IMG/VR virus record: IMGVR_UViG_2671180631_000010
Reading direction: 5' to 3' (one strand)
Length of the DNA stretch: 4,395 nt
From: a virus
Lineage: Duplodnaviria > Heunggongvirae > Uroviricota > Caudoviricetes
Positions 1 to 4,395 of the stretch are shown piece by piece. Both the position numbers and the translations under genes were made by a program. Numbering within the stretch: the first letter of the stretch is position 1; each line of letters opens with the position of its first letter. Under the pieces are notes generated by a model. That model saw only the letters and a program-made list of their open reading frames with translations, was not told where the DNA came from and did not search any database.

Positions 1-79
1 GCTTTGAACTCTTTAGAGTAACGTTGGGTTTTTCTGCTCATTATTAGCTCCTTCTGATGCCATTCTATTTCAGGAAGGA

Positions 80-343
80 GTGTCCGTTAAACTCAGGCTA
101 CCTCAGGTTATTCGCTTCTGGGCATGGGCGGATCAACAAATGATAGACGGTAATGCAGATTGTAACGCTCGCGGCGTTACAAAAAGTGCAATAGATCGCA
201 TCACTTTTATGTCTGGTTTTGCTGATGCGTTAATTCAGGTTGGATGGCTGGTCGAAAATGACGGAGGGCTTTCTCTACCTAACTTTGAACGTCATAACGG
301 AAAAAGCTCTAAAAAAAACGGGCGGTTACAAACGAGCGAGTAA
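80..343 (+). CDS. N-terminal fragment of a prophage replication initiator (putative origin-binding domain); likely one frameshifted gene with 447..782
   Basis: Frame-2 ORF from GTG 80 to TAA 341-343, preceded by purine-rich AGGAAGGAG at 72-80 (overlaps the GTG, so spacing is atypical; in-frame ATG at 140 is an alternative start). Frame has stops at 5-7 and 14-16, so it cannot begin further upstream. Ends inside an A8 run (311-318), after which the coding signal continues in frame 1. Confidence 0.6.
   Translation: MSVKLRLPQVIRFWAWADQQMIDGNADCNARGVTKSAIDRITFMSGFADALIQVGWLVENDGGLSLPNFERHNGKSSKKNGRLQTSE
162..180. repeat. 19-bp iteron-like palindrome GTAACGCTCGCGGCGTTAC (arms GTAACGC/GCGTTAC)
   Basis: Read directly; 16 of 19 positions identical to the second copy at 371-389. 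A GTAACG half-site also occurs at 18-23. Confidence 0.55.
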
Positions 344-370
344 CAAAAATACGCGAACTGAAACGAAAAG

Positions 371-389
371 GTAACGCTGCCAGCGTTAC
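371..389. repeat. 19-bp perfect palindrome GTAACGCTG-C-CAGCGTTAC (iteron-like), with half-sites at 322-330, 340-344 and 405-412
   Basis: Read directly; arms are exact reverse complements. Lies in the acidic-linker coding segment of the initiator next to A-rich tracts. Confidence 0.55.
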
Positions 390-446
390 ACAAACGGATC
401 AAAAAGCGTTACCAGAGGAAGAGGAAGAGGAAGATCTAAATACTGA

Positions 447-782
447 TCTCCCCCTCGCCAAAAACGAGCGTCTAAAAAATTCGAGCCGGAGGCTATTGAG
501 CTGCCCGATTGGTTGCCGGAAACACTCTGGCATGAGTGGGTCCGGTTCAGACAGGCATTGCGAAAACCGATTCGAACGGAGCAGGGCGCTAACGGGGCGA
601 TACGGGAACTGGAAAAATTCCGTCAGCAGGGTTTTACACCTGAGCAGGTGATTCGACACAGCATCGCCAATGAATACCAGGGCCTGTTCGCGCCGAAAGG
701 TGTTCGGCCTGAGACGTTGCTCCGACAGGTTAACACCGTCTCGTTGCCGGACAGTGCGATCCCGCCAGGCTTCAGGGGGTAA
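447..782 (+). CDS. C-terminal fragment of the replication initiator: DnaT-like C-terminal domain
   Basis: Frame 0 is open from 447 (after TGA 444-446) to TAA 780-782; the first canonical start in frame is TTG 513. The product ends ...NTVSLPDSAIPPGFRG, matching the C-terminal motif of E. coli primosomal protein DnaT (...NTVSEPDSQIPPGFRG) as recalled from memory. It sits 6 nt upstream of the DnaC-like gene, mirroring the chromosomal dnaT-dnaC arrangement. Confidence 0.65.
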   Translation, partial: SPPRQKRASKKFEPEAIELPDWLPETLWHEWVRFRQALRKPIRTEQGANGAIRELEKFRQQGFTPEQVIRHSIANEYQGLFAPKGVRPETLLRQVNTVSLPDSAIPPGFRG

Positions 783-788
783 CGGACC

Positions 789-1229
789 ATGAAAAATATT
801 GCGACAGGCGGCGTTCTGGAACGCATCCGCCGACTGACCCCGCCACATGTAACCGCCCCATTCAGAACGGTAGCGGAGTGGCGCGAGTGGCAACTTGCTG
901 AAGGCCAGAAACGTAGCGAGGAGATCAACCGCCTGAATCGCCAGTTGCGGGTGGAAAAAATTCTGAATCGCTCAGGCATCCAGCCGTTGCACCGTAAATG
1001 CTCGTTTGCGAATTACCAGGTGCAGAACGACGGCCAGCGATACGCGTTAAGCCAGGCGAAATCCATCGCCGATGAACTGATGACCGGGTGTACAAATTTT
1101 GCGTTCAGCGGAAAACCTGGTACCGGGAAGAATCACTTAGCGGCAGCTATCGGGAATCGCCTGCTGAAAGACGGTCAGACAGTGATTGTGGTTACCGTGG
1201 CTGATGTTATGAGCGCCCTGCACGCCAGC
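789..1229 (+). CDS. DnaC-like replicative helicase loader (AAA+), 3' end lost in N block
   Basis: ATG 789. The N-terminus and the Walker A region (FSGKPGTGKNHLAAAIG) align with E. coli DnaC as recalled (SGIRPLH..CSF.NY, FSGKPGTGKNHLAAAI, ITVADIMSA). The frame runs into Ns at 1230; the track ORF end at 1343 is a read-through artifact. Walker B and the true stop are not visible. Confidence 0.85.
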
Positions 1230-1287
1230 NNNNNNNNNNNNNNNNNNNNNNNNNNNNNNNNNNNNNNNNNNNNNNNNNNNNNNNNNN
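1230..1287. other. 58-nt block of undetermined bases (N) inside the DnaC-like gene
   Basis: Seen directly. Confidence 1.
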
Positions 1288-1303
1288 AGTTTCAGGAGGA
1301 TTT

Positions 1304-1726
1304 ATGGCGAAACCTTTTACTCCCGAACAGCGGGAAGAACTGAAGACGCGAATTGTGGAACTCGTGCATCAGGACGGTCGGGTCACGATTCGGCAGTTGT
1401 CAGATGAAACAGGTATCAGTCGTGCGTCTGTCGGTCGCTTATGCATAGAACTGGTCGCAAGTGGTGATGTATATAATTCTGGCTACGGCTTATTCCCGTC
1501 TGAACAGGCTCGCAAGGACTGGCAAAGCGCCCGCAAAAAACTCTCGAGAGTAAAGGTGAGGAAACCGGTTGTTGTTGATCCGGACCTTATCTGGTCATTA
1601 CCTGACGGAGAAATACGCCGCTACGACAGGCGCCTGAATATAATCTGTCGCGAGTGCCGGAAGAGCGAAGCTATGCAGCGTGTACTGGCTTTCTATCAGG
1701 GTAATTTTCAGGAGGCGATACTGTGA
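1304..1726 (+). CDS. Winged-helix (HTH) DNA-binding protein, function unknown
   Basis: ATG 1304 preceded by AGGAGG at 1294-1299; 140 codons. The N-terminal ~60 aa (RVTIRQLSDETGISRASVGRLCIELVASGDV) has a winged-HTH pattern. Confidence 0.75.
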   Translation: MAKPFTPEQREELKTRIVELVHQDGRVTIRQLSDETGISRASVGRLCIELVASGDVYNSGYGLFPSEQARKDWQSARKKLSRVKVRKPVVVDPDLIWSLPDGEIRRYDRRLNIICRECRKSEAMQRVLAFYQGNFQEAIL

Positions 1727-2140
1727 ATGAAATTAGCTATCAGGCTTCAATTACCGCTGGCATTCGCATCAAAGGAGAGGAGCATGGAAATAAAACCAGA
1801 AGATGAGTTAAGCAATATCGTTTTATTTCCGGTAAAAGAGGATGACCCTCGTAATCAGGTTAATTTTCTTTATGAGCCATCGGAAAGACCATATTGCCAT
1901 CACGCCTCTGTACGGGTTGACGAAAAAGAGCGTCAGGTCCGCTGTAAAATCTGCGGTGCGGTTGTGGAGCCGTTTGACTGGATGCTCTCTGTGGCAAAAA
2001 GAGAAACCAGACTGGCAGATGATGTAAGGCTATTGCGCCAGGAGGAACAGGAAAGGCGGAGAAATATAGAAAAGCTGATACAGATTGAGCGTAACGCGAA
2101 AGCGCGGATACGCAGGGCGACAAAATCCAGAACTGAATAA
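1727..2140 (+). CDS. Zn-ribbon (C-H-H...C-x2-C) protein with basic coiled-coil C-terminus, function unknown
   Basis: ATG 1727 overlaps the upstream stop (TGAATG), indicating translational coupling, with AGGAGG at 1710-1715. An alternative, possibly better start is ATG 1784 with GGAGAGGAG at 1774-1782. Stop TAA 2138-2140. Motif YCHH...RCKICG. Confidence 0.7.
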   Translation: MKLAIRLQLPLAFASKERSMEIKPEDELSNIVLFPVKEDDPRNQVNFLYEPSERPYCHHASVRVDEKERQVRCKICGAVVEPFDWMLSVAKRETRLADDVRLLRQEEQERRRNIEKLIQIERNAKARIRRATKSRTE

Positions 2141-2167
2141 TTAAATTTAGCACTGTTAAAAATTTAA
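2141..2167. promoter_or_regulatory. AT-rich palindrome TTAAATTT-N11-AAATTTAA just after the stop codon; possible operator or protein-binding site
   Basis: Arms 2141-2148 and 2160-2167 are exact reverse complements. AT-only stem, so unlikely to be a stable terminator. Confidence 0.3.
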
Positions 2168-2287
2168 TCCTTAACCGGAGGGATTTCTGCACCCTCAAAT
2201 CATCAGGAGACCACCCGAAAGGGCGGGGAGCAGTCACACATCTGTTTCCGATAGCCCCGTTCTAATGCTACACTCTTTGATATTTTT

Positions 2288-2974
2288 ATGACCCCAATAA
2301 ACATATTTATGACAGTTGCTGATTTCAAACGGCCCAAATTGGAGCTCCCAAACGGGGCAAACAAACTACTACTGCACTCTTGCTGTGCTCCATGTTCCGG
2401 TGAGGTGATGGAGGCGCTTCAGGCCTCGGGAATCGACTACACCATCTTTTTCTACAACCCGAACATTCATCCTCAGAAAGAGTATTTAATTCGTAAGGAT
2501 GAGAATATTCGCTTTGCTGAACAACACGGCGTGCCGTTTATTGATGCTGATTACGACACAGACAACTGGTTTGAACGAGCCAAAGGAATGGAATGGGAGC
2601 CCGAACGAGGGATCCGTTGCACCATGTGTTTTGACATGCGTTTTGAGCGGACAGCGCTGTACGCCGCTGAAAATGGTTTCAGTGTGATCAGCAGTTCACT
2701 GGGCATTTCACGCTGGAAAAATATGCAGCAGGTTAACGACTGTGGGCGGCGAGCCGTCGCGCATTATCCGGGCATGGTGTACTGGGATTATAACTGGCGC
2801 AAGCAGGGCGGCTCGTCCCGTATGATTGAAATCAGCAAGCGCGAAAAATTCTATCAGCAGGAATATTGTGGCTGTGTGTATTCTCTGCGCGATACCAATC
2901 TACACCGCAAATCTCAGGGACGCCCTCTTATCAAAATTGGTCAACTCCACTACGGTAAAGAAGAGAAGGAGTGA
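2288..2974 (+). CDS. queH: QueH-like protein (DUF208, epoxyqueuosine reductase family)
   Basis: 228-codon ORF, stop TGA 2972-2974. Cys motifs HSCCAPCS near the N-terminus, CTMCF mid-protein and YCGCVYS near the C-terminus match the QueH/DUF208 signature as I recall it. Start uncertain (ATG 2288 or 2309); no Shine-Dalgarno before either. Confidence 0.75.
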
Positions 2975-2995
2975 TTTTATGGGGCACCTTTCTGA

Positions 2996-3025
2996 TTGAT
3001 TTCATATTGGCGAGGTAAGTAGAAT
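2996..3025 (+). promoter_or_regulatory. Candidate sigma70 promoter: -35 TTGATT (2996-3001), 18-nt spacer, -10 TAGAAT (3020-3025)
   Basis: Hexamers read directly. Nearly identical to the motif at 3518-3545, including a GACT just downstream of the -10. Points into the N block. Confidence 0.35.
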
Positions 3026-3043
3026 GACTGCGGGTGCTTGAGG

Positions 3044-3080
3044 CTATCTGCTTCAGGCATGAACACCAAAAGGCAGATAG
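3044..3080. repeat. Inverted repeat CTATCTGC-N21-GCAGATAG
   Basis: 8-bp perfect arms at 3044-3051 and 3073-3080. Would lie in the 5' leader of a transcript from the 2996-3025 promoter; no U-tract follows, so not a terminator. Confidence 0.3.
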
Positions 3081-3133
3081 AGAAAAGCCCCAGTTAACAT
3101 TACGCGTCCGGCAAGACGCTTAACATTAATCTG

Positions 3134-3430
3134 NNNNNNNNNNNNNNNNNNNNNNNNNNNNNNNNNNNNNNNNNNNNNNNNNNNNNNNNNNNNNNNNNNN
3201 NNNNNNNNNNNNNNNNNNNNNNNNNNNNNNNNNNNNNNNNNNNNNNNNNNNNNNNNNNNNNNNNNNNNNNNNNNNNNNNNNNNNNNNNNNNNNNNNNNNN
3301 NNNNNNNNNNNNNNNNNNNNNNNNNNNNNNNNNNNNNNNNNNNNNNNNNNNNNNNNNNNNNNNNNNNNNNNNNNNNNNNNNNNNNNNNNNNNNNNNNNNN
3401 NNNNNNNNNNNNNNNNNNNNNNNNNNNNNN
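3134..3430. other. 297-nt block of undetermined bases (N)
   Basis: Seen directly. Flanked by a promoter-like motif upstream and a stop codon plus terminator downstream. Confidence 1.
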
Positions 3431-3454
3431 CATCCTCAACGCACCCGCACTTAA

Positions 3455-3497
3455 CCCGCCCATCGCTGTGATCTCTCAGCGTTTCGGCGGGTTTTTT
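3455..3497 (+). terminator. Rho-independent terminator
   Basis: GC stem CCCGCC (3455-3460) pairs with GGCGGG (3486-3491); inner stem CGCTG (3464-3468) pairs with CAGCG (3477-3481); followed by T6 (3492-3497). An in-frame TAA at 3452-3454 ends a + strand frame emerging from the N block immediately before the hairpin. Confidence 0.55.
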
Positions 3498-3517
3498 GTT
3501 GTTTATTTCCGGTGAAT

Positions 3518-3545
3518 TTGATTCGCGCACCTTCGCAGATAGAAT
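3518..3545 (+). promoter_or_regulatory. Candidate sigma70 promoter: -35 TTGATT (3518-3523), 16-nt spacer, -10 TAGAAT (3540-3545)
   Basis: Hexamers read directly, located just downstream of the terminator and about 80 nt upstream of the ATG at 3627. Confidence 0.4.
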
Positions 3546-3626
3546 CGACTCACTTAAGTAGCGCGCAGGGAGAAGAGGGATGGACCCCGAACAGGGGAGA
3601 GCTATTTATCTGGAAGGATTCTGAAG

Positions 3627-3914
3627 ATGAAAATCGAAGAATTGCGTGAAATTTTTAGTGAAAATGGCCTCTATGCTGTGCGCGTTGAGAATGGAGCGAT
3701 TGTCAGCCATTGCCGCATTAGATGTTTGCAATCTCAACAAAGGAAGAGCGGTGCTGTGTTATTTTATTTTTGTAATGGACTTCTGACGGACGGTTTTATT
3801 TTGCGTGAGGACGAATTTGTCACATCATTACGGGTTTTGAAAGAGATTGGTTTTAAGGCTGGTTTTCTGCTTTTGCTGAAGAATAAACTCATCTACAATC
3901 TTGAGCAGGATTGA
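3627..3914 (+). CDS. Hypothetical small protein (95 aa)
   Basis: ATG 3627 preceded by GGAAGGA at 3612-3618; stop TGA 3912-3914. Appears more AT-rich than neighbouring genes. No recognisable motif. Confidence 0.5.
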   Translation: MKIEELREIFSENGLYAVRVENGAIVSHCRIRCLQSQQRKSGAVLFYFCNGLLTDGFILREDEFVTSLRVLKEIGFKAGFLLLLKNKLIYNLEQD

Positions 3915-3952
3915 ACTCCTGCTGTGTAACACCGTGCCACCGGAGAAAGCCG

Positions 3953-4306
3953 ATGGCACATATACAACTGGTCAAACAAACCTCTTCCGGATTACTTCTC
4001 CCGGCGACGCCGGAGAGTTGCGATTTTCTGCATCAAATCAAAATAGGTGAGTGGATACACGCAGACTTTAAGCGTGTGTGTAACTACGCATTCCACAAGC
4101 GTTTTTTCAAACTCCTGCAACTGGGTTTCGATTACTGGACTCCGGTCGGTGGGGCGATCACGCCTCGCGAACGAAAACTGGTGTCCGGTTTCGTTGATTA
4201 CCTGTGTGAATCAGTAGGCCGGGAACATACGCCAGCTCTGAGCGAAGCCGCAGAGCAATTGAGGTGTACTGGCAATAGCGGACACTACCATTTGTTCTTT
4301 TTTTAA
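3953..4306 (+). CDS. Hypothetical protein, probably a lambdoid nin-region-type protein of unknown function; possibly truncated at a T7 run
   Basis: ATG 3953 preceded by GGAG at 3942-3945 (the track's TTG 3911 start is less likely). Stop TAA 4304-4306 lies at the end of a T7 run (4298-4304); the adjacent frame stays open to the window end. Confidence 0.6.
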   Translation: MAHIQLVKQTSSGLLLPATPESCDFLHQIKIGEWIHADFKRVCNYAFHKRFFKLLQLGFDYWTPVGGAITPRERKLVSGFVDYLCESVGREHTPALSEAAEQLRCTGNSGHYHLFFF

Positions 4307-4317
4307 GCAGCCATCTG

Positions 4318-4395
4318 ATGATATTTTTCCCTGAAGGCTGCCGGGGAGATATTCCCCAGACGAGAGTGACGACGCTGACGATTGTAGAAAATCTC
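4318..4395 (+). CDS. Partial ORF running off the window end (MIFFPEGCRGDIPQTRVTTL...); either a separate gene or the frameshifted continuation of 3953..4306
   Basis: Frame 1 is open from 4279 to the window end with ATG at 4318; no clear Shine-Dalgarno. Confidence 0.25.
   Translation, partial: MIFFPEGCRGDIPQTRVTTLTIVENL

Follow-up and report, generated by a model that had tools for sequence, protein, structure and literature searches.

The question raised by this locus is whether a prophage-encoded helicase loader stops short of its catalytic half or only appears to do so. The window, by which we mean the whole stretch of 4,395 nt of Caudoviricetes DNA that was analysed, contains a forward frame that opens with ATG at position 789 and can be read directly to 1229 (441 nt, 147 codons). 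There it runs into a block of 58 N (1230–1287), flanked by ...CACGCCAGC on the left and AGTTTCAGGAGG on the right, and the sequence is readable again from 1288 as agtttcaggaggattt. The 16 resolved bases that follow (1288–1303) carry the AGGAGGA ribosome-binding site (1293–1299) of the next gene, whose ATG is at 1304, and 74 nt separate this position from the last resolved codon. The original prediction described the frame as a DnaC-like loader with too little room for a full AAA+ C-terminus and left two alternatives: either the N block under-represented the true gap, or the prophage carried a truncated loader. Its account of the layout (147 resolved codons, 74 nt to position 1304 with 58 of them N, and the ribosome-binding site) was confirmed by direct reading.

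The assignment of the product as DnaC-like also held. The resolved 147 residues matched Pfam IstB_IS21 (E = 1.7e-7), the YdaV model NF009043 (290.8 bits, positions 1–147 of 248) and E. coli DnaC in PDB 6QEL. They cover the helicase-binding domain and Walker A, as had been proposed, and also the first AAA+ strand and helix. Walker A, GKPGTGKN, occupies residues 108–115 with the lysine at K114 (nt 1110–1133) and thus lies within the resolved part.

Megablast against complete E. coli genomes, together with the annotation of an uninterrupted E. coli prophage (L001), placed the locus in the early region of a Rac-type lambdoid prophage. The gene order in L001 is cI/cro-like regulators, ydaT, the replication initiator, ydaV, DUF977, a hypothetical gene, queH, hokD, a rem-like gene and DUF1367. 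Homology to L001 starts at window position 105; positions 1–104 and 4260–4395 had no match there. Either end of the window is the terminal part of an IS600 copy (IS3 family), both copies lying on the reverse strand and in the same orientation: 105 nt at 1–105, and 136 nt at 4260–4395 that truncate the DUF1367 gene and also match positions 4664–4799 of L002, a lineage-identical assembly. The element at L002 4663–5927 is 99.8% identical to elements annotated as 'IS3-like element IS600 family transposase'. On the forward strand, the first IS600 end is followed by the remnant of a ydaU-type replication initiator (105–782), ydaV and, beyond the N block, a gene for a YdaW-like winged-helix protein (1304–1726), which matches Pfam PF06163 over its full length (E = 1.1e-33) and is annotated 'DUF977 family protein' in L001. 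A second block of 297 N occupies 3134–3430. A tRNA search of the window found none. The window is most probably a short scaffold from a draft assembly of the Shigella sonnei lineage with IS600 copies at both ends, in which three contigs (1–1229, 1288–3133 and 3431–4395) are joined by N runs of estimated length.

Several features of this neighbourhood were recorded in their own right. The open reading frame at 1784–2140, between the DUF977 gene and queH, encodes 118–137 residues with a CxxC-like pair (CHH...CKIC) ahead of a long charged helix, and is only 'hypothetical' in all relatives. IS600 cuts DUF1367 at 4259/4260 and creates a fusion frame (3953–4306) for a protein of 117 aa. This exact protein was present in 521 collection blocks, of which 440 had it on contigs no longer than 2–5 kb; from these sizes it is evident that the flanking IS600 copies are where short-read assemblies usually break. 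The fusion could serve as a lineage marker. Farther out in the closed genomes, at L002 11546–20354, the remnant adjoins a fragment of a phage integrase as well as the modABC / modE-modF / galETK region, close to the classical lambda attachment region.

Lineage-matched genomes were looked up with the exact IS600-truncated DUF1367 fusion frame (117 aa, window 3953–4303) as the query, and nine loci were returned. Seven assemblies (L002, L003 and L005–L009) carry the same two IS600 junctions and the same upstream-gene lesions as the window; one of them, L006, is the complete chromosome of Shigella sonnei 75/02 (CP019689). The three resolved segments of the window (1–1229, 1288–3133 and 3431–4395) are each 100% identical in all seven, with zero differences over 4,040 resolved bases; in L002 the first corresponds to 5823–7051 and the third to 9479–10443. 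The flanks of the first N block, likewise 100% identical, are separated by 304 nt in 7/7 assemblies, and these 304 nt are the same sequence in all seven and in L001. The distance from the ydaV start to the DUF977 start is 761 nt in L001 vs. 515 nt in the window. The second N block, too, differs from its counterpart: its place is taken by 277 nt in all nine lineage loci (window 3133 corresponds to L002 9201 and 3431 to L002 9479). It covers hokD, annotated in L001, and the rest of a sok element on the forward strand; Rfam sok (RF01794) matches L002 9100–9275, and the 3' part of sok and the hokD toxin gene lie under this block (window 3032–3430). The first N run is therefore 246 nt too short and the second 20 nt too long. 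Since the second run is off as well while 4,040 resolved bases are identical, the N lengths are not true distances. With both gaps restored, the true length of the window would be about 4,621 nt rather than 4,395. The idea that the N runs are length-preserving masks was considered separately and rejected, as 297 N stand against 277 real bases in identical genomes.

From these data we conclude, with a confidence close to certainty, that the apparent truncation of the loader is an assembly artefact and that the 58 N stand for 304 nt of an intact ydaV; the closure rests on identical relatives, not on the source isolate's own sequence. Of the two alternatives of the original prediction, the under-represented gap was thus upheld by the 304 nt of seven identical assemblies. 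The truncated loader is not supported: contrary evidence had been named for it, namely a closed gap of at least about 300 nt with a whole AAA+ C-terminal half in it, and the gap closed from relatives is of this size and encodes such a half. Three observations run against an artefact. The gap errors are uneven, with the second estimate off by 20 nt vs. 246 nt for the first; a literal length of 58 nt would retain the reading frame and the TAG stop; and the contig ends do not fall exactly on the repeat edges described below. More generally, the length of an N run in a draft scaffold is no measure of distance, and a gene that looks truncated beside N should be compared with closed genomes from its own lineage before biological conclusions are drawn.

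The 304 nt translate as YDDGQSGEKFLRELCEVDLLVLDEIG...RVVK followed by the stop, that is, residues 148–248 and the T of TAG, which gives a whole protein of 248 aa. The AG of this stop is the first thing seen beyond the N block on the forward strand (1288–1289): position 1288 aligns with L001 4438, where the CDS ends at 4439, and with L002 7356, where it ends at 7357. The gene is ydaV; its resolved part corresponds to residues 1–147 of the 248-aa gene in L002, and the complete gene of 248 codons is present in the lineage-identical genomes. The hidden segment bears Walker B (D170/E171), sensor I (N204), the Arg coupler (R217), the Arg finger (R221) and sensor II (R238). The estimate of about 95 missing residues with Walker B, the sensors and the Arg finger was thus correct, as was the length of about 245 aa given for DnaC, which is 245 aa in PDB 6QEL. 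K112, E170, N203, R220 and R237 of DnaC are needed for ATPase activity according to mutagenesis, and R216 is the Arg coupler (PMC8213410). DnaC residues K112/E170/N203/R216/R220/R237 correspond to K114/E171/N204/R217/R221/R238 of YdaV, and all are conserved; D170 of Walker B corresponds to DnaC D169. Among these positions the Walker A lysine alone is visible in the window; the others are under the N run. The full protein from L002 scored 510.4 bits against NF009043 (positions 1–248 of 248; cut-off 389), and the resolved part falls below this cut-off only because the remainder is N. The full protein also matched PHROG 50, 'DnaC-like helicase loader'.

If the N run had its true length, either as a mask or as an accurate estimate, the source strain would carry a real in-frame deletion of 246 nt (82 codons). 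We regard this as very improbable. With 58 N taken literally, 'nag' at 1287–1289 falls into the frame that opens at 789 (501 nt, 167 codons), and the AG at 1288–1289 fits a TAG stop, so that a product of 166 aa is possible; a coincidence of frame has a chance of 1 in 3. Such a protein would retain the helicase-binding domain and Walker A and lack Walker B, sensor I, the Arg finger and sensor II. In its favour, the prophage is decaying already, the length of the window's other gap was estimated to within 20 nt, and deletion or fusion derivatives of ydaV (P0093, P0023 and P0024) are real in E. coli prophage remnants. However, seven assemblies identical to the window at 4,040 resolved bases have the full 304 nt, and the length of the second N run has been shown to be wrong. 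The anchors of the gap with a spacer of 43–73 nt gave no matches in three large collections (species-representative genomes, JGI metagenomes and IMG/VR), whereas the same anchors with a spacer of 290–318 nt matched 19 IMG/VR contigs, all with exactly 304 nt (match length 339 nt). When these collections were scanned for the DUF1367/IS600 junction, which is unique, only IMG/VR contigs without N matched. An X-containing ORF of 184 aa, as a gene caller would predict it through the N run, was absent from the records. The in-frame 166-aa form was absent among the 120 best YdaV clusters of the protein database, and the other short YdaV forms among the listed matches were partial proteins at contig ends, forms with frameshifts and fusion deletions of another kind. 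The segment contains no direct repeats 246 nt apart that could mediate the deletion. If the short form did exist, it might bind host DnaB and partly activate it, or be dominant-negative; partial activation is conceivable because the isolated helicase-binding domain of DnaC supports loading, at about half the wild-type level in vitro (PMC8213410).

In the fusion deletions seen in E. coli prophage remnants, a YdaV N-terminus of about 121–135 aa is joined in frame to part of another protein. P0093 consists of YdaV 1–121 and the C-terminus of the DUF977 protein, P0023 carries a DUF1627 fragment instead, and P0024 a lysozyme fragment.

The artefact has a plausible origin in a second ydaV paralogue of S. 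sonnei, located in another Rac-like prophage (L004 12352–13098). The paralogue has exact runs of 62, 80 and 142 nt in common with this ydaV and is 96.4% identical to it over 281 of the 304 hidden nt; the 142-nt exact repeat (gene nt 484–625) lies inside the gap. The last base of contig 1 is gene nt 441, about 40 nt short of the long exact repeat, and the first of contig 2 is gene nt 746, about 24 nt past the last shared run. Both are near but not at the repeat edges, which are known from one paralogue only. The same region is disturbed in other drafts. In L008, a run of 37 N starts inside the 142-nt repeat and joins the ydaV paralogue straight to IS600 (L008 4440–4700), and the first ydaV of L004 (6611–7357) is chimeric, its 5' part coming from one paralogue and its 3' part from the other. 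A protein database search with the resolved 147 aa found 'partial' YdaV clusters that end at residues 138, 140, 141, 147, 149 (351 members), 172 and 181, and 'partial' YdaV fragments with ends at residues 138–181 number in the hundreds in public protein sets. Because so many partial clusters end there, this stretch of ydaV is a recurrent site of contig breaks. Most likely, the gap was caused by at least one other ydaV paralogue with long exact repeats, which breaks short-read assemblers. This also bears on the deletion reading: a unique segment of 58 nt would normally not break an assembly, while an exact paralogous repeat of 142 nt would.

The gap could also be mis-sized and hide something larger or different, for example a new IS that has entered the 3' half of ydaV, or a 3' end that the gene has received by recombination with the paralogous prophage. 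S. sonnei is rich in IS elements, two IS600 copies flank the fragment, and L010, a single strain, shows further IS-mediated loss of ydaV; the chimeric joins between paralogues in the drafts L004 and L008 would fit a recombinant end. A simple IS insertion, however, would leave contig ends that abut in the reference, and here 304 nt of the reference are missing between them; the seven closest genomes contain no insertion. We consider such a lesion slightly less probable still than a true-length deletion, and retain an intact ydaV beneath a mis-sized gap as the preferred reading.

In the lineage to which the window belongs, the intact loader gene has a dead neighbour. Alignment of the remnant at 105–782 with its intact counterpart in E. 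coli FDAARGOS_944, which encodes 262 aa, showed that IS600 had removed the 5' end of the initiator gene and that two frameshifts follow. The first is a run of A8 at 311–318 vs. A6 in the intact gene (+2), and the second, at about 449, is the loss of 10 nt between direct repeats of TCCCCCT. An ORF of 87 aa (80–343) begins inside the IS600 end. The intact 262-aa initiator matched phrog_2509, 'replication initiation protein' (E = 1.2e-89). The lesions are also present, 100% identical, in closed S. sonnei genomes.

By homology with DnaC, an intact YdaV would work like a DnaC-type loader, with DnaB binding, ATP hydrolysis and helicase loading. Its N-terminal domain would bind the host DnaB hexamer; its AAA+ domains would oligomerise via the Arg finger, in dependence on ATP and ssDNA, and crack the DnaB ring open; and the helicase would be loaded at the phage origin that the adjacent initiator marks. 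Because the initiator gene was destroyed by IS600 and two frameshifts, ydaV is here probably an orphan without a role in phage replication. An intact ydaV frame beside a destroyed initiator is mildly interesting; an intact loader with a dead partner is common in decaying Shigella prophages.

Three known systems were compared with the full-length protein. One is IstB, the helper ATPase of IS21 (PF01695), with which YdaV has the AAA+ core in common (Pfam IstB_IS21 domain, E = 1e-19; PDB 5BQ5, E = 3e-9 over residues 102–221). The score against the IstB model NF038214 was 82.2 bits, far below the cut-off of 200, and unlike IstB the N-terminal domain of YdaV is DnaC-like. The gene has no IstA partner here; it lies among phage genes for replication and regulation and copies of IS600, a member of the IS3 family.

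E. coli DnaC (PDB 6QEL/6QEM) aligned with YdaV from end to end (residues 2–242 to 2–241 of 6QEL, E = 8e-75). The two proteins have the same two-domain layout, and the Walker A lysine, the Walker B DE, the sensor I asparagine, the Arg coupler, the Arg finger and sensor II are all kept. The helicase-binding domains (YdaV 2–103 vs. 6QEL 2–101) align without large gaps, entirely within the resolved part. The proteins differ in the ssDNA-binding 'tetrad': K143/F146/S177/Y179 of DnaC correspond to H145/Y148/T178/N180 of YdaV, and three of the four are designated as different. Against the equivalog model of host DnaC (NF005931), the full-length protein scored 306.1 bits, below the cut-off of 357, and YdaV is therefore a prophage paralogue rather than the host dnaC product.

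The closest system is YdaV of Rac-type prophages (NF009043 / PRK12377, 'ATP-binding protein'), to which the protein belongs over its full length and with a score above the cut-off. A 99.6%-identical E. coli locus is annotated ydaV by RefSeq, and the ydaU-ydaV region of Escherichia phage Rac is 93.3% identical to the window at the DNA level. Common to both is the Rac-type neighbourhood of cI/cro-like genes, ydaT, the initiator, ydaV and DUF977. The locus departs from Rac-type YdaV in its surroundings and in the state of its sequence: IS600 and frameshifts have disabled the initiator in this lineage, and N takes up the 3' 40% of ydaV in the window. The protein itself is without differences from Rac-type YdaV, and the feature is an ordinary and already known one, an annotated prophage ydaV.
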